Numbered from the stretch's first letter, positions 44,722 through 55,899 are shown. The stretch is 64,000 bases of DNA from an uncultured Thermoplasmata archaeon (GCA_963749235.1 CAVVLV010000001.1:1147039-1211038); one strand, 5' to 3'. Numbers and translations: made by a program. Notes: generated by a model not told the origin, from the letters alone.

Positions 44722-45321
44722 TTGCGGCGGGCCTTCGCGAAGGACCACTTCCGCGTGGTCGGCGTAGATGACGGGGCGTTCACTCGAGAGGACACGTGGG
44801 CGCCGGTCGCTGCGGTCGCCGTGGCCGCCCCGGACCGGGTGGAGGCGATGCGCGTCGGGCGGGTCCGGGTCGACGGGCGGGGGGCCGCGACCGAGATCGT
44901 GCGGCTGGTCCGCGCCACCGGCGGGCTCGAGGGGTTGCGCGCGGTCCTCCTCGACGGAGCGGTCGTCGGGGGGTTCAACGTGGTCGACCTGGACGCAGTC
45001 CACGCCGCCTTGGGCGTGCCGATCGTCGCCGTCACACGTCACCGCCCCGACTTTCCGGGGATCCTAGCCGCGCTGCGCAAATGGTTCCCGCGCGACGCGG
45101 CGGCCCGCTGGAAGCTCCTGCGTGCCCATCGGCTCTACGCACTTCCTTTCGCCGACCTCCCGCTCCTCGTCGCGACCGTGGGTTGCGGACGCGCGGACGC
45201 GGCCGTGCTCGTCCGTAAGACCACCGTGCGGGGACACGTCCCCGAGCCGATCCGCCTGGCCCACCTCGTTGCCTCGGCTGGACCGACCCCGGGCCCGTCG
45301 CCCCGAAAGAAGAATCCTTAA
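44722..45321 (+). CDS. DUF99 / UPF0215 family protein (endonuclease-V-like fold)
   Basis: TTG at 44722. FRVVGVDDGAF...VDGRGATEIV...AVLLDGAVVGGFNVVD...PIVAVTRHRPD matches the DUF99 pattern. Confidence 0.65.
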   Translation: MRRAFAKDHFRVVGVDDGAFTREDTWAPVAAVAVAAPDRVEAMRVGRVRVDGRGAATEIVRLVRATGGLEGLRAVLLDGAVVGGFNVVDLDAVHAALGVPIVAVTRHRPDFPGILAALRKWFPRDAAARWKLLRAHRLYALPFADLPLLVATVGCGRADAAVLVRKTTVRGHVPEPIRLAHLVASAGPTPGPSPRKKNP

Positions 45322-45346
45322 GGGGAACGGCCCCCGTCGGAGGTGC

Positions 45347-45453
45347 GGGCCTGTAGCTTAGCCCGGACGAAGCACTGGCCTTCTAAGCCAGCTAACTCGG
45401 GTTCAAAGGTCCGGGGCGAGCACCGCCCCGGACGGAGATTCCCGACAGGCCCG
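45347..45453 (+). tRNA. tRNA-Arg (anticodon UCU) with a 32-nt intron in the T-loop (45408-45439)
   Basis: Hand-folded cloverleaf. Acceptor GGGCCUG/CAGGCCC; U8; D arm GCUU-AGCCCGGACG-AAGC; anticodon arm CUGGC-CUUCUAA-GCCAG; variable loop CUAAC; T stem UCGGG/CCCGA; T-loop UUCAAA[intron]U; discriminator G. Confidence 0.85.
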
Positions 45454-45570
45454 CCCCCAGGGGGAGCCACATCCCGATTACCGAGCACCCACCGTTTCCT
45501 CACCCGGGGAGTTGGCCAACCCCGGGAAGTTCCTCGATCGGTCGGGGGGGCCGCTCGGCGTGAACCCGAG

Positions 45571-46576
45571 ATGAAATACGACTGCGCGATTGGCCCCCGT
45601 GCGATGCCGCGGGAGGAGGTGTTGGACTGGTTGCTCGAACCCGAGCAGCCGTCGGTGCGCTACCTCGCGTTGACCCAACTCCTCGGGAAGAAGGAGAGCG
45701 ACGCGGAGGTCCGCAAGGCCAAGGCTCGCATTCCAACTACGGGATGGGTGGCCGACACGCTCGCCCGCCGGAACGCCGCCGGATGGTGGGAGCGGGACAA
45801 GGGCTGGATGGAGCCCCGGTTCACGGCGACCCACTGGACGATGCTCGCGTTGGCCGATCTGGGGGCGACGCGGGCCATCCCGCAGGTGGCCGCGTCGGCG
45901 GAGGTACTGGATGGCCAAGTCGCCGCTCGAAGGAGGGGGCGTGGGAGGCTTCGGGAAGGGGAAGGGGCACCATTGTTACACGGCCAACATGGCGCGCGGC
46001 CTCCTTCGCATGGGCTTCGAAGACGACCCCCGGGTCCGCAAGACTCTCGAATGGCTGGTCCAGACCGCCCACCCCAAGGGAGGCTGGTCCTGCCGGTACG
46101 TCAAGAACGGGCCGGCCACGAGCCGTTCGCTCGACGCGTGGGAGGGATTGGGCGCCTTCGCCGCGTACCCTCGTTCCCGTTGGAGTCCGGCGGTGAAGGC
46201 CGTCGTGGAGCGGACCGCCGAGTACTACCTCGAGCACGAGCTCCACATTCAGGGCGACCGGTACGAGCCATGGTACCGCTTCCACTGGCCCGTCCACTAC
46301 TACTACGACCTGTTGGTCGGCCTGGATTGCCTGACTGCGCTCGGCTACGGCAACGACCCGCGACTGGGGTACGCGCTCGACCTCCTGCGCAAGAAGCAGC
46401 GGCCCGATGGAACGTGGGTCCTCGACGCGTTCCAACCGGATCCGTACCCGGAGTTCGTCGATTGGTTTGCGAACCACCCCGGAAACTGTCCGGTGCCGCT
46501 GACATTCGAGGCGGAAGGAAAACCGAGCAAAATGATCACGCTGAGGGCGATGACCGTCCTTTCGCGCCTGAATTAG
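45571..46576 (+). CDS. hypothetical alpha/alpha-toroid (prenyltransferase/terpene-cyclase-like repeat) protein, +1 frameshift at ~45903
   Basis: MKYDCAIGPRAMPREEVLDWLLEPEQPSVRYLALTQLLG... is in frame 1 up to SAE. YWMAKSPLEGGGVGGFG...HPKGGWSC...QRPDGTW is in frame 2. Family assignment is tentative. Confidence 0.5.
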
Positions 46577-46647
46577 GAACGTGCGCCGGGTCGGCGACAT
46601 TTCGAGACCCCTGGCATCGGGTGGGGTGGGACCGAAGCGTCCGCGGT

Positions 46648-47710
46648 CTAGCTTCCGGCGACTTCCGCGGCGCACTTGTCGCACAGGATGCCCTTCGCAT
46701 CGGACGGGAGCGGCGCCCCACAGAGGGGGCACGACGCCCGGGCGTCCGCCGCCGCGAGGAGTTCTTGTACGCTCGTGCGCAGCGCCGGATTGGCACCGCC
46801 CGTGTCCGGCGGGGGCGCGCTCGGTTCGGCGACGGGAACCGGCATGAACGCGTCGAGCCGGGGGCGGTAGACGCCGGTCCGGCGGTCGAACGTGACGAGG
46901 CCACGGGCCGCGAGCCCCTGGAGCGCGGAGTCGACGAGCTCGCGCACCCCGCCGAATACGTGGGTCATCTCGAGCGCGGTGAGCCCGTGCGACTCCACGA
47001 TCACCGCAAGGCAGCGCGAGGCGAGGAGCGGCATTTCCCCCCGGCCGACCAGGCGGTCGACGTACCAGCTGACCCGGGCGGACCGGCGCACGCGGCGCTG
47101 AGGAGGGAGCCGGCGGCCCGGGGGTCGGTGAGAATGAGGGAACGGACCAGGTCGAGATCGTACGTGACCCGCTCGTCCGGGTAGTAGGCGAGGACGGAGA
47201 CGCAGAACGGGAGGAGCGCGATCGAGCGGCTCCCCACCAGCCCCTCCTGGAGGCTACGGAGGTGAGTGGCGATGGCAACGCGCGCCCCGCCGGCGGCCGC
47301 CCGGTCCTCCTCGACCCGGGTGCGGGGCAAATAGTGCTCCCGAAGGAGGAACCGCGCGATCACGCGCGTCGGCGCGCCGGTCGCGACCGGGAAGACCTGG
47401 GCGGACCCGTCGGTTTCGAAGACGATCCGTTCGAAGGGACGGAGGAACTCCCACGGCGCCCCGGGGCCGGCGCCGGGTCGAGCCGAAGCTCGATCGGGGA
47501 CGTGCTGGCCGCGGGGTTCGCGGCGAGTTCGTAGACCGTTGAGTACTCCTGTTCACCGACCCGGAGCCGGAACGGCCCGATCGGGGTCCGCCGGCGGGCG
47601 AGATACTCCTCGTACGCACGAGTGAGGGCACGCTCGGAGTAGGCGTCGTGCCGTTCGGCCGCCAGCTGCCGTGCGATCTGGTCGAGCTCAGCCAGGGGAA
47701 CGACTGCCAT
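46648..47710 (-). CDS. hypothetical protein with C-terminal winged-helix and CxxC...CxxC zinc-ribbon-like motif; two frameshifts (~47465, ~47065)
   Basis: Three consecutive ORFs (47360-47710, 47001-47363, 46648-47091) join into one coherent ~350-aa reading. wHTH-like LTALEMTHVFGGVRELVDSALQGLAARGLVTFDRRTGVY. C-terminus CPLCG...CDKC. Confidence 0.5.
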
Positions 47711-48897
47711 TCGAACTCCGCGCCTCGATGAGATGCTCGTAGAGGAAGATAAAGCGACGGGCCATCGTCTCGACCGACGCGCGTTCTCGGACGTACTCGC
47801 GACCGTGGGCGCCCAAGGATCGGCGCAGCACGGGATCGTCCGCGAGCTGGACGAGCGCCGCCGCGAGCGCCCCGGGCTCGAGGACCGGGACCCGCCGACC
47901 GTTCCGCCCGTCCTCGAGCAGCTCCGCCGCGCCCCCCTCGGCCGGACCGATCACTGCGGTGGCGCAGGCCATCGCCTCCAGGAGGGCGATGCTGGACGTA
48001 TCGCTGGTGGAGGGCAGGACGAAGACGTCACTCTGCCCGAGCAGGGCCGGCTTTTCCTCCTCGGCCACGGGTCCCACGTACCGGGCGATCCCTCGGAGTC
48101 GAGGGTCGTCCCGGATCCGAGCCCGCACCGCGGCCTCCTCCGGCCCGGCGCCGCCGACGACCGCGACCACGTCGGTGCGGGCGCGGGCGTCCGCGACCGC
48201 GTCGAGGAAACGGTGCACGCCCTTGTCGACCGTCAGCCGGCCCAGATACGTAACGAGGGGCACCGAGGAGAATCCGCATCGCGCGCGCCAATCGGGGACG
48301 GTGACGTCGGGCGCGAACCGGTCGAGGTCGATCCCGTTGGGGACGACCTCCACGGACCGTCGGAATGGTTTCCGCACGCTTCCGACGAGCGCGTCGCGCG
48401 CCGCGACCGAGGGCGCGGTCGCGACGTCACACCGCCAGGTACAATCCCAAGTTCCACCACCAGGCGACGCGAAAGAACGACGGGACCAAGAACTTCGACG
48501 GTACGCTCGAGGCCATCTCGCGAATATTCGTATGGAACGTTCCCAAGAGCGGTCGGCCGAAGCGGCGGGCGGCCAGGAAGCCGACGCTCCCCAAGCCGCC
48601 GGGCGAATGGACATGCAGCACGTCCGCCTCCGCGGCCCCCTGCGCTTCGCGTAGCGCGCTGAACGGGAATAACGGCCATCGGTACTGCCCATAGAGCGGG
48701 ACCCGAAGGCTGCGGAGCCGACGCACGGAGACCCCGCCCTCCCGGCTCTCCTCGGAGGGAGCCCCGCTCACCGGATTCGGTGCAAAGACCCGGACTTGGT
48801 GGCCGAGGCGGACCAGCTGGTTGGCTAGGCTGCCCGTGACCTGGGCGACCCCGTCCCGCATCGGCGGGTAGGAGTCCGTGAAGAACGCGATCTCCAT
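47688..48897 (-). CDS. GT4-family (GT-B) glycosyltransferase, single-base insertion at ~48438
   Basis: The N-terminal domain MEIAFFTDSYPPMRDGVAQV...VHSPGGLG...GTFHT is in one frame. The C-terminal part VVPNGIDLDRF...FVLPSTSDTSSIALLEAMACATAVI is in another. Confidence 0.8.
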
Positions 48898-48988
48898 GGT
48901 TCGATCGGACGACTCGGGGTGACGTGGCCGTCCGGGTTCCTATGCTTATGGGTCCTCAGGCGAGGACCGGTTGCGGCACACCGTCGCG

Positions 48989-49774
48989 TTATAGTACGCT
49001 CTGGAACGCGCGCTCGAGGCGGCTCGCGTCCTTGAGATCGAGCGACCTCGGGTCGAAGGAAACGATGAGGGCCGAGCCGGTGTCGTGGACCTGGGTGACG
49101 AGCCAGTTGACGAACCGGAGGGTCAGCTCGAGGGAGTGCTCCGTGGCGAGGAATTCGAGGGCGTCGACGTAGACGAGCGCGCCGCCGGCCAGCTCCGTCG
49201 GACCGCGGAGTCGTCCGCTGATCTCCCCCGGCGTCGGCAGGGTCGACGCGAGCCCTTCGCCCGCCCCGCTCGGGGAGATCACGACCAGCCGCTCTGCGCC
49301 CAGGTCGGGGATCGTCGGCGGATGGAGGGAGACGACGGCGACCCGGGGGAAGTCCGCCACGTTCGTCCGCAGGATCTCGAGCGCGCGCGCGGGTCGCTCC
49401 TCCCGGACGAGGACGCTCCGGCCCGCGCCGAGGTGGATCGCCGCGGGTGGAGGGGTCGGACCCACCGGACTGAGCCAGGGCCGGGCCGAGGTCGGCGGCC
49501 GGAGCAACGCCCCCCATGCCGGGCGCCGCGGGGGCGCGAGGAGGCTGCGACGTTTCAAATCGACCTCCTCCGAGAGGCGGGCGAGGCGGCTTTCCGCGAG
49601 CATGCGGAGCTCTTGAGTCGTGTGGCCGCGCGAGGCGTGTCCCAAGACCTCCCGCAACGCGCTCCGGACCCCTTCCTCGTACCCCGTCGCGTAGGCCCGG
49701 ACGTATTCCTCGTCGGTCGGGTCCTCCTCCGGCGGTCGGGAAGGAGCGCCGTCCCGGCGCGGCGAGTCGTTCAC
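48989..49774 (-). CDS. DUF835 domain protein
   Basis: GTG at 49774 overlaps the DUF35 stop (GTGA). The C-terminal ~170 aa fit the DUF835 pattern (SVLVREERPARALEIL...ALVYVDALEFLATEHSLELTLRFVNWL...ALIVSFDPRSLDLKDASRLERAF). The remaining 538 codons of the 799-aa ORF are antisense to the thiolase gene. Confidence 0.6.
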   Translation of the reverse strand: MNDSPRRDGAPSRPPEEDPTDEEYVRAYATGYEEGVRSALREVLGHASRGHTTQELRMLAESRLARLSEEVDLKRRSLLAPPRRPAWGALLRPPTSARPWLSPVGPTPPPAAIHLGAGRSVLVREERPARALEILRTNVADFPRVAVVSLHPPTIPDLGAERLVVISPSGAGEGLASTLPTPGEISGRLRGPTELAGGALVYVDALEFLATEHSLELTLRFVNWLVTQVHDTGSALIVSFDPRSLDLKDASRLERAFQSVL

Positions 49775-50259
49775 GCCGGGGCCCGGTCCGGCTCCGGGGT
49801 ACCGGACGGGACGGGCGGCCGGGTCCCCCGGCGGCCCGGCACAGGATCGGTGTCGACGGCGGGGGCGAACTTGTATCCGTAATGGATGACGCCCGCCTTC
49901 CCCTCCTCCCGGAGCTTTCGGAAGGTCGCACGGACCCGAAGCCCGATCGCGACCTCGGGGGGGTTCACGTCCACGACCTGGCCGGTGAGCATCGGTCCCT
50001 CGACGGTCTTCACGAGGGCGACCACGTACGGGACCTGCATCTCGAATCCTTCGGCCGCCTCGTGGACGACCGTGAAGGAGTACACGGTCCCATCGCCGCT
50101 CAACTGGAACGGCGCCATCTTCTCGATCGTCTGCCGGTGGTGCGGGCAGGTGGGGCAGACCGAGCGCGGGGGGAAATAGACCGTCTCGCAGACCCCGCAT
50201 CGGGAGCCACCCAGATTGTAGCGTCGGGGCGTCTCGCGCCAGAAACGTGCGACCGACAT
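49771..50259 (-). CDS. DUF35 OB-fold/zinc-ribbon protein (scaffold of the archaeal thiolase-HMG-CoA synthase complex)
   Basis: 162-aa. CGVCETVYFPPRSVCPTC zinc ribbon, then an OB-fold segment GTVYSFTVVH. Confidence 0.8.
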   Translation of the reverse strand: MSVARFWRETPRRYNLGGSRCGVCETVYFPPRSVCPTCPHHRQTIEKMAPFQLSGDGTVYSFTVVHEAAEGFEMQVPYVVALVKTVEGPMLTGQVVDVNPPEVAIGLRVRATFRKLREEGKAGVIHYGYKFAPAVDTDPVPGRRGTRPPVPSGTPEPDRAPA

Positions 50260-50268
50260 GGGACCCTC

Positions 50269-51438
50269 CTACGCCGCCCTCTCCAGGAGGTGGACCACGC
50301 TCGTCGCACCGGTGCCGCCGACGTCGTGGGTGAGCCCGAGCGTGGCGTCCTTCACCTGCCGGTCTTTTGCCTCGCCCCGGAGCTGCTTCACGATCTCCAC
50401 GACCTGGGCGACCCCGACTGCACCGAACGGACGTCCTTGGGCCTTCATCCCCCCGGACGGGTTGAGCGTGAGCGGGCCCGCGAAGCCGAACCGTCCCGAG
50501 GCGAATTCCGGGCCGGCCTCCCCCTTCTCGACGAATCCCAGGTCCTCGAGCGCGACCAGCGCGCTGATCGTGTAGGCATCGTTGATCTCGGCGACGCGCA
50601 CGTCGGCCGGGGCGCGGCGGGCCCGTTCGAAGGCGTGCCGCGCCGCGACCACCGTCGACTCGACCGTGGTCACGCTCGCCCGGTGCTGGAGCGCCATCGT
50701 GTCGCAGGCGACCTCGCTCGCGGCGATGCGGATCGGGATGTCCGTGTGTCCGCGGGCCATGTCGAGGGGACCTAGGACGACCGCCGCCGCTCCGTCCGAG
50801 AGCGGGGCGCAGTCGAGCATCCCGAGCGGTTCCGCGACCTCGCCCGCCCCCATCACCTGTTCCAGCGTCAGCTGGTTCCGGTAGTGGGCGAGCGGGTTCT
50901 TCGCGGCCATCGCGTGGTCGTGGACGGCCACCCGGGCGAGCTGCTCGCGCGTTGTGCCGAAGTCGTGCATGTGCCGCTGGGCCACGAGGCCCCATAGGGC
51001 GGGGAGCGTCGCACCGAAGACGACCTCCCACTCGTGGTCGGCGGTGGAACTCGTGATCCGGTTCGCCGTTTCGTCGGGGACGTCCGTCATCTTCTCGGCC
51101 CCGCCCACGACGACAAAGTCGTACTGGCCGCTCGCGACCGCCAGGTATCCCGCATGCAGGGCGAGGGCACCGGAAGCGCCGCCCCCTTCCACCCGGACCG
51201 CGGGAAGGTGCCGACCGGCGAGGCCGGCGTAGTCGAGGATCAGCGGCGCGATGTGCTCCTGGTCGAGGAGAGAGCCCGAGGCCATGTTCCCGAGGAACAA
51301 TCCCCCCAGGTCGGCCGACGAGAGCTTCGCGTCGACGAGCGCCTGCAGGCCGGCTTCGATCCCGATCTCCCGGAAGGAGCGGTCCCACAGCTCGCCGAAC
51401 TTCGTCTGACCGACGCCGAGCACGGCCACGTCGCGCAT
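50269..51438 (-). CDS. acetyl-CoA C-acetyltransferase (archaeal thiolase)
   Basis: 389-aa: MRDVAVLGVGQTKFGE..., GGGASGA, and C-terminal GLTHDVGGTG. Confidence 0.88.
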   Translation of the reverse strand: MRDVAVLGVGQTKFGELWDRSFREIGIEAGLQALVDAKLSSADLGGLFLGNMASGSLLDQEHIAPLILDYAGLAGRHLPAVRVEGGGASGALALHAGYLAVASGQYDFVVVGGAEKMTDVPDETANRITSSTADHEWEVVFGATLPALWGLVAQRHMHDFGTTREQLARVAVHDHAMAAKNPLAHYRNQLTLEQVMGAGEVAEPLGMLDCAPLSDGAAAVVLGPLDMARGHTDIPIRIAASEVACDTMALQHRASVTTVESTVVAARHAFERARRAPADVRVAEINDAYTISALVALEDLGFVEKGEAGPEFASGRFGFAGPLTLNPSGGMKAQGRPFGAVGVAQVVEIVKQLRGEAKDRQVKDATLGLTHDVGGTGATSVVHLLERAA

Positions 51439-51440
51439 GG

Positions 51441-52493
51441 CTACTCCCCTCCCATGTGGATCTTGCCCCGGAACTTCGCGTAGACCGCGTAGGGGATCTC
51501 GATCCCCGCGTCCAGGTACTCTTGCACCGGGCGTCCGAACGAACGGTCGTAGTTCGCGATCTCGTCCATGACCTCGAAGTCGAAGGCGTCGGAACCGGCG
51601 CCCGAGCCGTAGCCGACCATCAGGATCCGTTCGCCGGGTTGGGCCCGGTCGAGCACGTTCGCGAGGCCGATCAAGGCGGCTCCCGAGTAAGTGTTGCCGA
51701 TGTACGGGGTTACGAGGCCGTACTTCATCTGGGCCTCCGTGAAGCCGAGCTGCTTACCCACCCGCTGCGGGAACTTTCCGTTCGGCTGGTGGAAGACCAC
51801 GTGGGCGTAGTCCTTCGGGGTCGTGCCCGACGCCGCGAACATCCGCTTCGCGCATTCGGTGACGTGACGGAAGTACGCAGGCTCCCCCGTGAACCGGCCG
51901 CCGTGGCTGGGATACTTCTGTCCCTCCCTCCGCCAGAAATCAGGGGTATCGGTCGTGTAGGAGAGCGTGCCGAGCACGCGGGCGATGACCCGCTCGCGGC
52001 CGATGATCATGGCGGCTCCGCCGGCGCTCGCCGAGTACTCGAGCGCGTCCCCGGGGGCGCCTTGCGACGTGTCCGTCCCGATCGCGACGCCGTAGCGGAT
52101 CATCCCCGAGCCCGCGAGGCCGAGGCAGGTTTGGATCGCCGCGGTGCCCGCCTTGCAGGCGAACTCGAAGTCCGCCGCGGTGAGGTTCGGGGTCGCTCCC
52201 ACCGCCGACGCGACCACCGTCGCGGTCGGCTTCACGGCGTAGGGATGGGATTCGGAGCCGACGTAGATCGCTCCGATCTGCTGCGGGTCGATCCCGCCCC
52301 GCACGAGCGCGACCCGGAGGGCTTCGGTCGAGATCGTGATGGTGTCCTCGTCGGGGGCGGGGACGCTCTTCCGGATGACATTGAGTCCCTGCCCCATCCC
52401 CTCCCCGTCGACGCCCCAGACCCGCCCGATCTCGGCGGGCGTGATCCGGTATCTCGGCACATACGCTCCGTAGCTCACGATCCCTGCGTCCAT
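51441..52493 (-). CDS. hydroxymethylglutaryl-CoA synthase
   Basis: 350-aa: [14 protein letters not shown]...PDEDTITIS...FACKAGT...[10 protein letters not shown]. Confidence 0.88.
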
Positions 52494-52511
52494 GGTTCCC
52501 TCCGGTTTCCT

Positions 52512-53189
52512 CTAGAGTTCCTCGAGCCGTTCGAGCACCGCCGGCGCGGCCAGCGCGGTGGTCAGGAGGGGAATGTTCTCGACCTCGGAGAGACGGACCG
52601 CGAGCGGGTCGATCCGGCCCGGTGCGGCAAAGACGACCGCGGCCGGCTTCAACGGATGCGCGCGGATCGCCACCATCGGGGAGCGCCCGTACTTCACGTT
52701 GGAAAAGATGAGCGCCCGCTGGGTCGTCCAGCCGTAGACCTCGACGAACCGGGACGCATCGATCGAAAGGATCGCCCGCGGCGCGTCCAGGATCGTGAAC
52801 CCGTGGATGTCGCGGTGCAGGTCGACCCGGCTCACCGGCTTCGCGTCCAGCCGGTCGGCGAGGGCCCGGAGCGGGATCGCGACCGTGAATTCCCGCATCC
52901 CGAGGATGCCGTCCGAATGAGGACGGACCCCGAGGCGCTGGCCGACCCGGCTCCCGTTCTGGCTGTCCAGGGCCAAGAGGCTGTCCACGTACCGACGGAT
53001 GAACCCGGCGCCCGGGCTCACCCGGCGTTCCGATTCGTAGTCCGAGATCACGGAGGGAACCGTCGCGAGCTGCTTCGCGAGGTCGCGCTGGGAGATCCCG
53101 AAATCCTCCCTCCACTTCCGGAGCGTGCGACCCGGGTGAGGAGAGAGAACCACCTCCCCTGCGATCTTCTCGCGGATGTCGGCCTCCAC
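52512..53189 (-). CDS. XRE-type helix-turn-helix transcriptional regulator (archaeal COG1395-like)
   Basis: 225-aa, GTG start. LRKWREDFGISQRDLAKQLATVPSVISDYESERR is a clear HTH_3 motif. The C-terminal ~140-aa domain is of unknown function. Confidence 0.65.
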   Translation of the reverse strand: MEADIREKIAGEVVLSPHPGRTLRKWREDFGISQRDLAKQLATVPSVISDYESERRVSPGAGFIRRYVDSLLALDSQNGSRVGQRLGVRPHSDGILGMREFTVAIPLRALADRLDAKPVSRVDLHRDIHGFTILDAPRAILSIDASRFVEVYGWTTQRALIFSNVKYGRSPMVAIRAHPLKPAAVVFAAPGRIDPLAVRLSEVENIPLLTTALAAPAVLERLEEL

Positions 53190-53213
53190 GTTCCGCCCCG
53201 AGGCCGGGGCCGG

Positions 53214-53219
53214 TATAAA
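53214..53219 (-). promoter_or_regulatory. TATA box (minus-strand CTTTATAC) for the HTH regulator / mevalonate operon
   Basis: Centred ~27 nt upstream of the GTG at 53189, suggesting a leaderless transcript. Confidence 0.45.
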
Positions 53220-53283
53220 GGGCTAGGGTTCGTGTCGGTGGGTGCGCTCGACACATGCCGACATTGACCTCACCCGGACGGAG

Positions 53284-53388
53284 TGGACCGGGCGAGATTC
53301 TCCGGGCGGGGTCCATGCCGGCCCCACCCCTTTGAACTCGCGACCTCTACCTTGCCAAGGTAGCGATCTTCCGCTGATCTACCGGCCC
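53284..53388 (-). tRNA. tRNA-Ala (anticodon GGC) with a 33-nt intron in the T-loop (53298-53330)
   Basis: Hand-folded cloverleaf. Acceptor GGGCCGG/CCGGUCC with the G3:U70 Ala identity pair; D arm GAUC-AGCGGAA-GAUC; anticodon arm CUACC-UUGGCAA-GGUAG; variable loop AGGUC; T stem GCGAG/CUCGC; T-loop UUCAAA[intron]U; discriminator A. Confidence 0.88.
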
Positions 53389-53414
53389 ACGAGGCCCGCC
53401 GACGCCCGGCGCGG

Positions 53415-53422
53415 GATAAAAT
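53415..53422 (-). promoter_or_regulatory. TATA box (minus-strand ATTTTATC) for tRNA-Ala
   Basis: Lies 27-34 nt upstream of the mature tRNA 5' end at 53388. Confidence 0.55.
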
Positions 53423-54686: not shown

Positions 54687-55899
54687 CGGGCACGCGGGCG
54701 AGCAGTTCCTTCAACCCCGCGACGAGGACCTCGACATCCTCGGCGTTGTTGTAGAAGTAGAAGGACGCCCGCACATTGCCCGGGATGTTCCGCTCGGCGT
54801 ACCAGGAGTGGACACAGTGCCGTCCCGACCGGACCATCACGCCGTACCCTTCGTCCAGGAAGAGCGCCGCGTCGTGGGGGTCGATCCCTTCGATGGTGAA
54901 CGCGACGAGGCTCGGCCGGTCGTTGGGATCTTGGGGTCCCAAGATGCGGATCCGGGGCTCGCCGGCGAGAGCGTTCGTCAGCCGGGCATTCAGGTCCCGT
55001 TCGTGGGCCCGCATCTCCGTGGGGTCGAGCTGTTCCAAGTACCGGAGGGCGGCCCCCAGGCCGACGAGCCCCGCGTAGTTCTGGAGGCCGGCCTCGAACC
55101 GATATGGCGGTGGACGCAGTTCGTGCTCGGTGAGCGTGCTCCACTCTACCGTCTCCCCTCCCAGGAGGAGCGGTCGCAACGTGGCGAGACGCTCCGGGCT
55201 CGCCGCGAGGATGCCGGTCCCGGTCGGTCCCAGCATCTTGTGCCCGGACACGGCGTAGAAATCGACCCCCATCCGGTCGAGCTCGAGCGGGGCGTGGGGG
55301 GCGGCCTGACACCCGTCGAAGAGGACCTGCGCTCCGCGGTCGTGCGCGAGTTCCGTGATCTCTTCCACCGGAAGGCTCCGCCCATCCAGGTTCGACGTAT
55401 GGAACAAGCTGACGAGGCGCACCCCCTTGCGGAGCCGCTCTTCGAGGACCAGCTGGTCGAAGCCTCCCTCGTCCGAAAGCGGGAGGATCTCCACCCGGAT
55501 CCCTCGCTCCGTCGCCAATCGTTGCCAGACGATGAGGTTCGAGTTATGCTCCCGATCCGAGATCAGGACCCGCTCCCCGCGCTTCCACGGGAGCCCTTGC
55601 GCGACCAGGTTGATCGCCTCCGTCGAATTCCTGAGGAAGACGATCCCGCGCGGGTCGGCGACCCCGAGCCGATGCGCGAAGAGGGACCGGGTCTCCTCGT
55701 ACCGTCGGCCGACCTCCTCCGCGAACCGGTGAAGGCTGCGACCGCCGCACCCGGGGAAATCCCGGTAGTAGGAGGCGGTCGCGTCGAGGACGGCCTGGGG
55801 GACGAGCGACATGCAGGCGGAATCTAGGTAGACGGGCGGCAACCCGGACTCCCGCGGCCGCAGGGCGGGGAAGTCGCGTCGCCGGTCGGCGAGGCTCAT
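54532..55899 (-). CDS. class V aminotransferase / cysteine desulfurase (SufS/CsdA-like)
   Basis: 455-aa: VYLDSACMSL, FYAVSGHKMLGPTGTGIL (PLP lysine), RSGRHCVH. The last ~45 residues are Arg/Ala-rich and antisense to the PAC2 gene. Confidence 0.82.
   Translation of the reverse strand: MSLADRRRDFPALRPRESGLPPVYLDSACMSLVPQAVLDATASYYRDFPGCGGRSLHRFAEEVGRRYEETRSLFAHRLGVADPRGIVFLRNSTEAINLVAQGLPWKRGERVLISDREHNSNLIVWQRLATERGIRVEILPLSDEGGFDQLVLEERLRKGVRLVSLFHTSNLDGRSLPVEEITELAHDRGAQVLFDGCQAAPHAPLELDRMGVDFYAVSGHKMLGPTGTGILAASPERLATLRPLLLGGETVEWSTLTEHELRPPPYRFEAGLQNYAGLVGLGAALRYLEQLDPTEMRAHERDLNARLTNALAGEPRIRILGPQDPNDRPSLVAFTIEGIDPHDAALFLDEGYGVMVRSGRHCVHSWYAERNIPGNVRASFYFYNNAEDVEVLVAGLKELLARVPVSGTSAGKTTPKAPSGTGRPRAAGSSRAAARSARPRRRAGPRPRASARGSS

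Follow-up and report, generated by a model that had tools for sequence, protein, structure and literature searches.

How can a tRNA gene that carries more than thirty extra nucleotides inside its T-loop still specify a tRNA, and which enzyme would take them out? The question is raised by a 64,000-nt stretch of DNA (the window) from an uncultured Thermoplasmata archaeon (GCA_963749235.1, CAVVLV010000001.1:1147039-1211038), in which a tRNA-Arg(TCT) gene and a tRNA-Ala(GGC) gene each bear such an insert. The reading that we favor, at a probability of roughly 0.78, is that both inserts are archaeal bulge-helix-bulge (BHB) introns located between nucleotides 59 and 60 (59/60) and spliced by proteins, with an α′2 splicing endonuclease (EndA) as the most likely enzyme; splicing and the exact junctions (A59/U60) are predicted from sequence. 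The pattern TTCAAAG-N(15-40)-GGAGAWT matched exactly twice in the 64 kb, at 45402-45440 (+) and 53336-53297 (−), and had no match in 100 dinucleotide-preserving shuffles of the window; its occurrence is therefore not a matter of chance. Deletion of 45408-45439 (32 nt) left a canonical tRNA-Arg(TCT) cloverleaf, and deletion of 53330-53298 (33 nt) left a canonical cloverleaf of tRNA-Ala(GGC) that includes the identity pair G3:U70. The mature T-loop would then read UUCAAAU in either tRNA, and removal of the insert likewise regained a canonical cloverleaf with the conserved T-loop bases in all relatives. The parts of the two genes are as follows.

45347..45453 (+): tRNA-Arg(TCT) gene, G1 to discriminator G73, insert included (spliced cloverleaf; Rfam tRNA match to the 5′ part, 30.6 bits)
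45347..45407 (+): tRNA-Arg 5′ exon, nucleotides 1-59 (sequence, cloverleaf)
45397-45401 (+): tRNA-Arg T stem, 5′ strand, UCGGG (sequence)
45402-45407 (+): tRNA-Arg T-loop, U54 to A59 (sequence)
45408..45439 (+): putative tRNA-Arg intron, 32 nt, between nucleotides 59 and 60 (motif, splicing, folding, orthologues)
45408 (+): intron bulge base G
45409-45433 (+): intron hairpin (h′), 10 bp with a 5-nt loop
45434-45437 (+): intron GGAG, partner of U54-A57
45438-45439 (+): intron bulge bases A and U
45440..45453 (+): tRNA-Arg 3′ exon, comprising U60 (which completes the 3′ bulge), T-stem strand CCCGA, the 3′ strand of the acceptor stem and G73
53284..53388 (−): tRNA-Ala(GGC) gene, G1 at 53388 to A73 at 53284, insert included (spliced cloverleaf)
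53331..53388 (−): tRNA-Ala 5′ exon (sequence, cloverleaf)
53341-53337 (−): tRNA-Ala T stem, 5′ strand, GCGAG
53336-53331 (−): tRNA-Ala T-loop, U54 to A59
53298..53330 (−): putative tRNA-Ala intron, 33 nt, between nucleotides 59 and 60 (motif, splicing, folding, 87 distinct orthologous introns)
53330 (−): intron bulge base G
53329-53304 (−): intron hairpin (h′)
53303-53300 (−): intron GGAG
53299-53298 (−): intron bulge bases A and A
53284..53297 (−): tRNA-Ala 3′ exon, comprising U60, CUCGC, the acceptor 3′ strand and A73

Both inserts consist of a G, a GC-rich hairpin, the sequence GGAG and two further nucleotides (AU in Arg, AA in Ala). The hairpin runs from the second intron nucleotide to the base directly before GGAG; in Ala it has 8 bp, then 2 bp more beyond a one-base bulge. 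Drawn together with the exons, the 5-bp T stem (UCGGG/CCCGA in Arg, GCGAG/CUCGC in Ala) is followed by UUCA of the T-loop facing intron GGAG, with U54·G, U55:A, C56:G and A57·G in both genes, a 5′ bulge A58-A59-G and a 3′ bulge A-(U/A)-U60. The two 3-nt bulges lie on opposite strands, each 3′ of its own strand of the central helix (in general terms A58-A59-N1 and N-N-U60). They were kept in all 103 metagenome introns described below and in roughly 20 instances examined in metagenome-assembled genomes (MAGs), flanked by the 5-bp T stem on one side and an intron hairpin of roughly 8-12 bp on the other.

These features provide the basis for a model of the precursor. We predict that the native T stem serves as the outer helix (h), that U54, U55, C56 and (A57) pair with the four intron bases before the last two to give a four-position central helix (H), that A58, A59 and the first intron base form the 5′ bulge while the last two intron bases and U60 form the 3′ bulge, and that the GC-rich intron hairpin is the inner helix (h′). 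With the intron placed after the sixth base of a 7-nt loop, the T arm would mimic an anticodon arm that carries an intron at 37/38. In each bulge, EndA would cut between the second and third bases, and an RtcB-type ligase would join A59 to U60, so that the T-loop, and with it the tRNA elbow, would form only after ligation. In the tRNA-Ala gene, splice sites placed 1 or 2 nt further 5′ yield, by sequence alone, the same mature T-loop, a caveat on its junctions.

The pairing register was examined in introns recovered without any constraint on their sequence. Joint Genome Institute (JGI) metagenomes were scanned with the tRNA-Ala exon sequence only, T-loop bases 57-60 and the intron being left unconstrained. 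This intron-blind scan returned 102 contigs with 87 distinct tRNA-Ala introns of 27-34 nt, all of them at 59/60, and adjacent tRNA-Arg genes on metagenome contigs supplied 16 further distinct introns. The bases at the informative positions were distributed as follows.

First intron base: Ala (87), G 73, C 11, A 3; Arg (16), G 16
Base opposite A57: Ala (87), G 85; Arg (16), G 16
Base opposite C56: Ala (87), G 87; Arg (16), G 16
Base opposite U55: Ala (87), A 79, G 7, C 1; Arg (16), A 14, G 2
Base opposite U54: Ala (87), G 55, A 32; Arg (16), G 8, A 8

Over the 103 introns, the base opposite C56 was always G (103/103), the one opposite U54 always a purine (103/103), the one opposite U55 a purine in 102/103 and the one opposite A57 a G in 101/103. 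Since the exon side is invariant, no classical covariation is possible in the central helix; the substitutions allowed opposite C56, U55 and U54 are exactly those that preserve pairing to C, U and U. Both intron-derived bases of the 3′ bulge vary, the first being mostly A. The closing pair of the hairpin is G:C in 85 of 87 Ala and 16 of 16 Arg introns, and the hairpin always abuts the bulge and the central helix. The base opposite A57 (45434 and 53303 in the window) was never U in the 103 introns: the "mismatch" is itself conserved, and we have no explanation for it.

The hairpin, by contrast with the central helix, is free to covary. In a covariation test of 26 introns of equal length, the full model paired 91% of cells and 8 of 11 hairpin pairs had changed on both sides; none of 500 shuffles matched the observed values, and slid registers left only 29-54% of cells paired. 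We regard the architecture and the register, as read from these alignments, as well supported. An alternative register (C56:G1, U55·G2, U54:R3) was rejected: it gives no reason for the invariance of the second G or for the restriction of the fourth base to purines, and it fails in the tRNA-Gln described below. A kink-turn reading of the A·G beside a 3-nt bulge was set aside by reasoning only, the order of elements along the strand (central helix, bulge, GC-rich stem) being opposite to that of a kink-turn.

A second survey extended the motif to other tRNAs. We scanned 185,579 species genomes with the pattern GTTCAAAGG-N(18-30)-CGGAGAWTC, which gave at least 120 matches. Among the 120 matches listed, 20 are real cassettes and about 100 are chance matches that lack T-stem complementarity. 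All real cassettes among the matches listed lie in Thermoplasmata-class MAGs of 62-73% GC, one of which is labelled Methanomassiliicoccales, and after splicing they give tRNA-Ala(GGC), Arg(TCT), Ser(GCT), Ser(GGA), Ser(CGA), Leu(TAA) and Leu(TAG). When these loci were scanned without any pattern, two bystanders were added, neither of which fits the search pattern. One is a tRNA-Arg whose intron ends in GGAAGC, so that U54 pairs with A. The other is a tRNA-Gln(CTG), the single G57 tRNA seen, with T-loop UUCGAAU and intron end CGGGAC; here C stands opposite G57, and G57:C, C56:G, U55·G and U54·G make four standard pairs (2 Watson-Crick and 2 G·U). Across related MAGs the cassette thus occurs in at least eight isoacceptors.

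An earlier reading of this DNA, made from the sequence alone, had described two T-loop introns with the layout G, hairpin, GGAGA(U/A), and its coordinates and all four of its elements (T stem, central helix and two bulges) are present as described. The shared architecture and register that it proposed are borne out by the unconstrained introns, the covarying hairpin and the C opposite G57, and its suggestion that the cassette could work in any tRNA fits the range of isoacceptors. It had also called the motif a relaxed BHB, which we would revise. Relaxed motifs (hBH, HBh′ and BHL) lack one bulge, or have it disrupted or turned into a loop (PMC6379350, PMC3239211). The introns described here keep both 3-nt bulges and the four-position helix, and the one non-Watson-Crick position is itself conserved. 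Because both bulges are intact, the motif appears near-strict rather than relaxed in the sense of the literature: a 3-4-3 (bulge, helix, bulge) hBHBh′ in which A57 tRNAs conserve a single non-Watson-Crick position.

Standard tRNA finders miscall these genes. On the unspliced window, ARAGORN reported a wrong 80-nt tRNA-Arg (45345-45424), taking part of the intron as the T arm, and missed the tRNA-Ala. With the Rfam tRNA model only the 5′ part of Arg passed the gathering score, and the match to Ala (53333-53388) was sub-threshold. No further tRNAs were detectable in the 64-kb window; an ARAGORN tRNA-Ser with an 869-nt intron, from runs with and without the intron option, was discarded as spurious, and a supposed tRNA-Asp in the related locus L003 was dropped for its resemblance to coding sequence. 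tRNA counts serve for grading MAG quality and for inferring decoding capacity. The tRNA complements of MAGs of this clade are probably under-counted, and such counts will be too low for a widespread soil/peat archaeal clade unless BHB-aware tools are used.

These miscalls might also be expected if the inserts were not introns at all, being either retained as an extra arm in the mature RNA or carried by decaying pseudogenes. We find this barely credible. A T-loop cannot form with 32 extra bases inside it; the exons are perfectly conserved while the insert hairpin evolves freely under a pairing constraint; and the exact 3-4-3 geometry is preserved in more than 100 variants. At these conserved loci, furthermore, we saw no other Ala(GGC) or Arg(TCT) genes, and promoter-like boxes lie at about −25. 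In the window these boxes are as follows.

45316..45323 (+): A/T-rich box CCTTAAGG with its end 24 nt before tRNA-Arg, likely a TATA-like promoter element
53414..53422 (−): A/T-rich box ATTTTATCC with its end 26 nt before tRNA-Ala, likely a TATA-like promoter element

Boxes reading AAGCTTAAGG or GCTTATC occur upstream of intron-bearing tRNAs in L003, L020, L025, L043 and L115. The A/T-rich boxes contrast with the GC-rich surroundings upstream of these genes, and they are likely archaeal TATA elements.

What, then, would allow an intron at such a position to be recognized? Canonical pre-tRNAs have their splice sites in the bulges and the first two bases of the anticodon within the 4-bp central helix (PMC4090602). 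From this anticodon-base rule, given by Yoshihisa, it follows that the helix takes in loop bases 32-35, and the bulge 36, 37 and the first intron base. A 5-bp stem and a 7-nt loop also make up the T arm; therefore 54-57 would correspond to 32-35, and 59/60 to 37/38. By this analogy, which combines the sequence with the published rule, the precursor T arm may reproduce the geometry of an anticodon arm that carries its intron at the canonical site. The two share the 5-bp stem, the 7-nt loop and an intron after the sixth loop base, with loop bases 1-4 in a helix with the 3′ part of the intron and bases 5-6 plus the first intron base as the bulge (PMC4090602). They differ in that the element here is on the T arm and has A·G at one position in A57 tRNAs, and in that the helix has the invariant UUCR as its exon half; for this last reason the 3′ part of the intron hardly varies (GGRR) and does not differ between tRNAs.

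A second case of the same geometry was found in the tRNA-Leu(TAG) gene of L111 (CAVOMG010000001.1, 528-~673, +), which has two non-canonical introns, a 27-nt one in the D-loop (552-578) and a 32-nt one at 59/60 (627-658). Removal of both gives a clean class II cloverleaf. By an explicit BHB search, the D-loop intron forms a 3-4-3 BHB whose pairs are all Watson-Crick and whose helix h is the D stem; the D-loop bases GGCC are in its central helix, and with them the conserved GG (G18-G19 by our own assignment). The non-canonical introns of this clade thus seem to follow one rule, the native stem-loop acting as a mimic of the anticodon arm.

We then considered the enzyme. The sequence-only reading had predicted a broad-specificity endonuclease (α2β2 or ε2) in this genome, and none was found. 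Starting from EndA sequences verified in the PDB, we proceeded to a Thermoplasmatales EndA and from there to 30 two-unit representatives judged GC-rich by amino-acid composition. Matches in the first search, with a profile of the PDB-derived sequences, were dominated by Archaeoglobus and Methanocaldococcus, and its only single-unit EndAs of GC-rich amino-acid composition were either Methanopyrus-like or P0120, which lies on a 56% GC contig whose context is not Thermoplasmata-like. The searches together gave hundreds of two-unit relatives of ~345-390 aa, the named ones belonging to Thermoplasmata, Methanomassiliicoccales or Methanobacteriota. Two-unit EndAs of 347-354 aa were traced to contigs of 66-74% GC, and every EndA on the high-GC Thermoplasmata contigs traced was of the two-unit α′2 type. 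Pfam assigned the N-domain plus catalytic domain twice to most two-unit EndAs. One of them, P0373, aligned over both units to the A. fulgidus α′2 EndA (1r0v) and to the fused M. kandleri enzyme, and had no insertion at the site of the crenarchaeal/ARMAN specificity loop; broad-specificity EndAs are made from separate α and β subunit genes or as a three-unit protein, and have an inserted lysine-bearing loop in the catalytic unit (PMC5829648). The EndA-bearing contigs include four MAGs of the JOPF series, which also holds five intron-bearing MAGs. On this indirect evidence from sequence families we consider it on balance probable that the clade uses an α′2 EndA, and an ordinary two-unit enzyme of Thermoplasmata is the most likely candidate, rather than a broad-specificity one, because the motif keeps the strict 3-4-3 geometry.

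On high-GC Thermoplasmata contigs, the two-unit EndA gene (10001-11065 in L129, L135 and L239; 803-1867 in L132; also L240, L243 and L264) sits in two conserved neighborhoods: in one, CarS-like and phosphoribosyltransferase genes precede EndA and the trp operon follows it; in the other, EndA is divergent from a PDDEXK_19-HTH gene. No tRNA lay within 10 kb of EndA on the traced contigs. In L264 the DUF72 protein beside EndA is only about 44% identical to that of the window, which makes that lineage a distant one.

Several points weigh against the reading that we favor. The A57·G makes one position of four in the central helix non-standard, which is not the textbook strict BHB. Folding with ViennaRNA, a check suggested by the sequence-only reading, gave a solid T stem and intron hairpin but did not predict the UUC:GAG helix, whose pair probability was at most 0.004; the BHB conformer lies above the minimum free energy by 3.2 kcal/mol in Arg, 4.5 in Ala and 1.0 in the G57 tRNA-Gln. 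Folding energy is thus neutral to mildly unfavorable for the BHB conformer, and the case therefore rests on the comparative data. The pattern of the genome scan was fixed as GG...CGGAGAWTC, so that the sample is biased and the list of isoacceptors is a lower bound. No EndA was found with tblastn and a small hidden Markov model in the window or in the related loci, which amount to about 1.1 Mb (a weak match in L020 proved to be a coiled-coil open reading frame); none of the EndA contigs traced comes from the 21 intron-bearing MAGs; and amino-acid composition, whole-genome shotgun prefixes and shared DNA gave no same-genome link between EndA and intron among the traced contigs. These genomes may also have a second EndA of another type. 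Finally, α′2 and α4 enzymes act on the canonical BHB at 37/38, and reviews state that Euryarchaeota with such enzymes have no introns outside the canonical position (PMC4090602, PMC4033280).

A rival explanation, in line with the sequence-only reading, is that A57·G turns the motif into a relaxed BHB that a strict enzyme cannot cut, and that the genome encodes an α2β2 (with a specificity loop) or ε2 EndA that let T-loop introns accumulate. The central helix of A57 tRNAs has only three standard pairs, one of them G·U, besides the conserved A57·G, and energy alone does not predict it; published surveys tie non-canonical positions to α2β2 and ε2 enzymes (PMC3239211, PMC5829648, PMC6379350); ARMAN-2, which has 59/60 introns, uses ε2 (PMC3239211); and the EndA of this genome was not recovered from the window, the related loci or the traced contigs. 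We nevertheless judge this explanation unlikely. The introns examined in detail all retain their two 3-nt bulges, unlike hBH, HBh′ and BHL motifs, the G57 tRNA makes four standard pairs, and the D-loop intron found in this clade forms a perfect, strict BHB. The two-unit EndAs traced to high-GC Thermoplasmata contigs and the lack of an insertion at the specificity-loop site in P0373, as well as the origin of the GC-rich single-unit EndAs of the first search, also weigh against it.

We also asked how the introns came to be shared among tRNA genes. The window has 65-71% GC (host lineage ~69%) and encodes archaeal genes, among them PAC2, ribosomal protein L3 and a pair coding for HMG-CoA synthase and thiolase. 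A thiolase identical to that of the window is encoded on JBAVAJ010000100.1 (GCA_049585655.1), a contig that bears both tRNAs. Syntenic loci, at 78-97% protein identity, belong to MAGs labelled "Thermoplasmata archaeon", mostly from soil/peat projects, and the closest syntenic relative, JBKQNC01, is at 96-97%. By its genes and synteny, the window lineage is Thermoplasmata. Both window introns are present clade-wide at syntenic loci; orthologues of the tRNA-Arg intron were found in L001, L054, L057 and L063 and on the 16 metagenome contigs. Since they occur both at the loci of these relatives and on more than 100 metagenome contigs, the insertions are old.

The sequence-only reading had regarded the cassette as compatible with spread between tRNA genes, and a recently mobile G-hairpin-GGAGA unit, copied from one tRNA gene to another with the window introns as recent copies, would indeed put the same flanking motif into at least eight isoacceptors. 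The two window hairpins also align slightly better than shuffles, a marginal similarity (18 of 500 shuffles scored as high), and transposition has a precedent in Thermoproteales (Fujishima 2010, as cited in PMC4090602). As an account of recent events, we hold this to be quite improbable. The bases shared between tRNAs are those fixed by pairing to the invariant T-loop and for that reason hold no signal of common descent. Orthologous hairpins are clearly similar (85% identity in Arg and 73% in Ala, with 0-1 of 500 shuffles as high), whereas hairpins of different tRNAs in one genome are 48-62% identical and, in L054 and L111, no closer than shuffles. The clade-wide synteny noted above also speaks against recent copying, and no cassette was found in viral contigs, where all 19 matches were due to chance. 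Hairpin identity, synteny and the viral-contig scan thus gave no sign of recent transposition. The occurrence in at least eight isoacceptors fits repeated insertion at one favorable site or an ancient spread, and the introns appear, from these comparisons, to be an old, vertically inherited feature of a high-GC soil/peat Thermoplasmata clade, present in many isoacceptors.

BHB introns at 59/60 are already known from other archaea, and sites in the T-loop are noted in reviews (PMC6379350). In ARMAN-2 (Candidatus Micrarchaeum), pre-tRNA-Pro(GGG) has a strict hBHBh′ and pre-tRNA-Cys(GCA) an hBH motif at this position, the latter being cut by the ε2 EndA in vitro (PMC3239211); 59/60 introns also occur in Crenarchaeota (Marck & Grosjean 2003, as cited in PMC6379350). 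The introns described here share with these the T-loop site, the use of T stem and T-loop in the BHB, the short length and the expected removal by EndA. They differ in their host, a Thermoplasmata clade rather than Crenarchaeota or DPANN; in keeping both bulges, unlike the ARMAN-2 tRNA-Cys; in the likely enzyme, α′2 instead of ε2 or α2β2; and in forming a cassette conserved over many species and at least eight isoacceptors with a fixed G opposite A57. With the Thermoproteales case, as it is presented in PMC4090602 (Fujishima et al. 2010), they have in common one kind of intron at the same kind of site in many tRNA genes; the introns there are highly similar between tRNAs, whereas in the present case the tRNAs share no more than the bases constrained by structure, and inheritance appears vertical. 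A T-arm intron whose removal precedes T-loop formation or modification is also found in tRNA-Ile(UAU) of the red alga Cyanidioschyzon merolae, a eukaryotic case with another enzyme complex and relaxed motifs (PMC9602550). A full-text literature search, which did not cover subscription journals, found no report of T-loop introns in Thermoplasmata. What is new is therefore probably the lineage, and probably also the type of enzyme.

Textbooks restrict the α′2 enzyme to canonical 37/38 introns. The EndA of T. acidophilum is an α′2 enzyme of narrow specificity (PMC6379350). We give even odds to the full proposition that a soil/peat Thermoplasmata clade has only a loop-less two-unit α′2 EndA and yet carries T-loop and, at least once, D-loop introns, the strict 3-4-3 geometry being kept by mimicry of the anticodon arm. 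If this is true, a non-canonical position is separable from a relaxed motif, the co-evolution rule by which non-canonical introns need α2β2 or ε2 enzymes has a clear exception, and the conserved A57·G is a non-Watson-Crick pair tolerated or required in the substrate of a strict enzyme. The known range of 59/60 introns is also widened by a Thermoplasmata clade that conserves them in many isoacceptors, and the more than 100 natural variants amount to a substrate series that shows which positions are free and which fixed, including the unexplained G opposite A57. In none of these respects, whether annotation, tRNA biology or the substrate series, is this a new kind of system.

Three further observations concern the surroundings of the two genes. 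An Rfam match to Ms_AS-8, an actinobacterial small RNA, at 55093-55167 (+) is weak (E = 0.74; 25 bits, where the gathering score is 48) and almost certainly due to chance. The GC before G1 of tRNA-Arg (45345-45346) can pair with G73 and the next base (GC, 45453-45454); this extension of the precursor acceptor stem to 9 bp is probably a chance effect in a 69% GC genome. The tRNA-Arg and tRNA-Ala genes enclose a trio encoding the archaeal HMG-CoA synthase, thiolase and a DUF35/OB-fold protein (49771-52493, −), an ordinary mevalonate-pathway context whose synteny with tRNA-Ala is kept across relatives.

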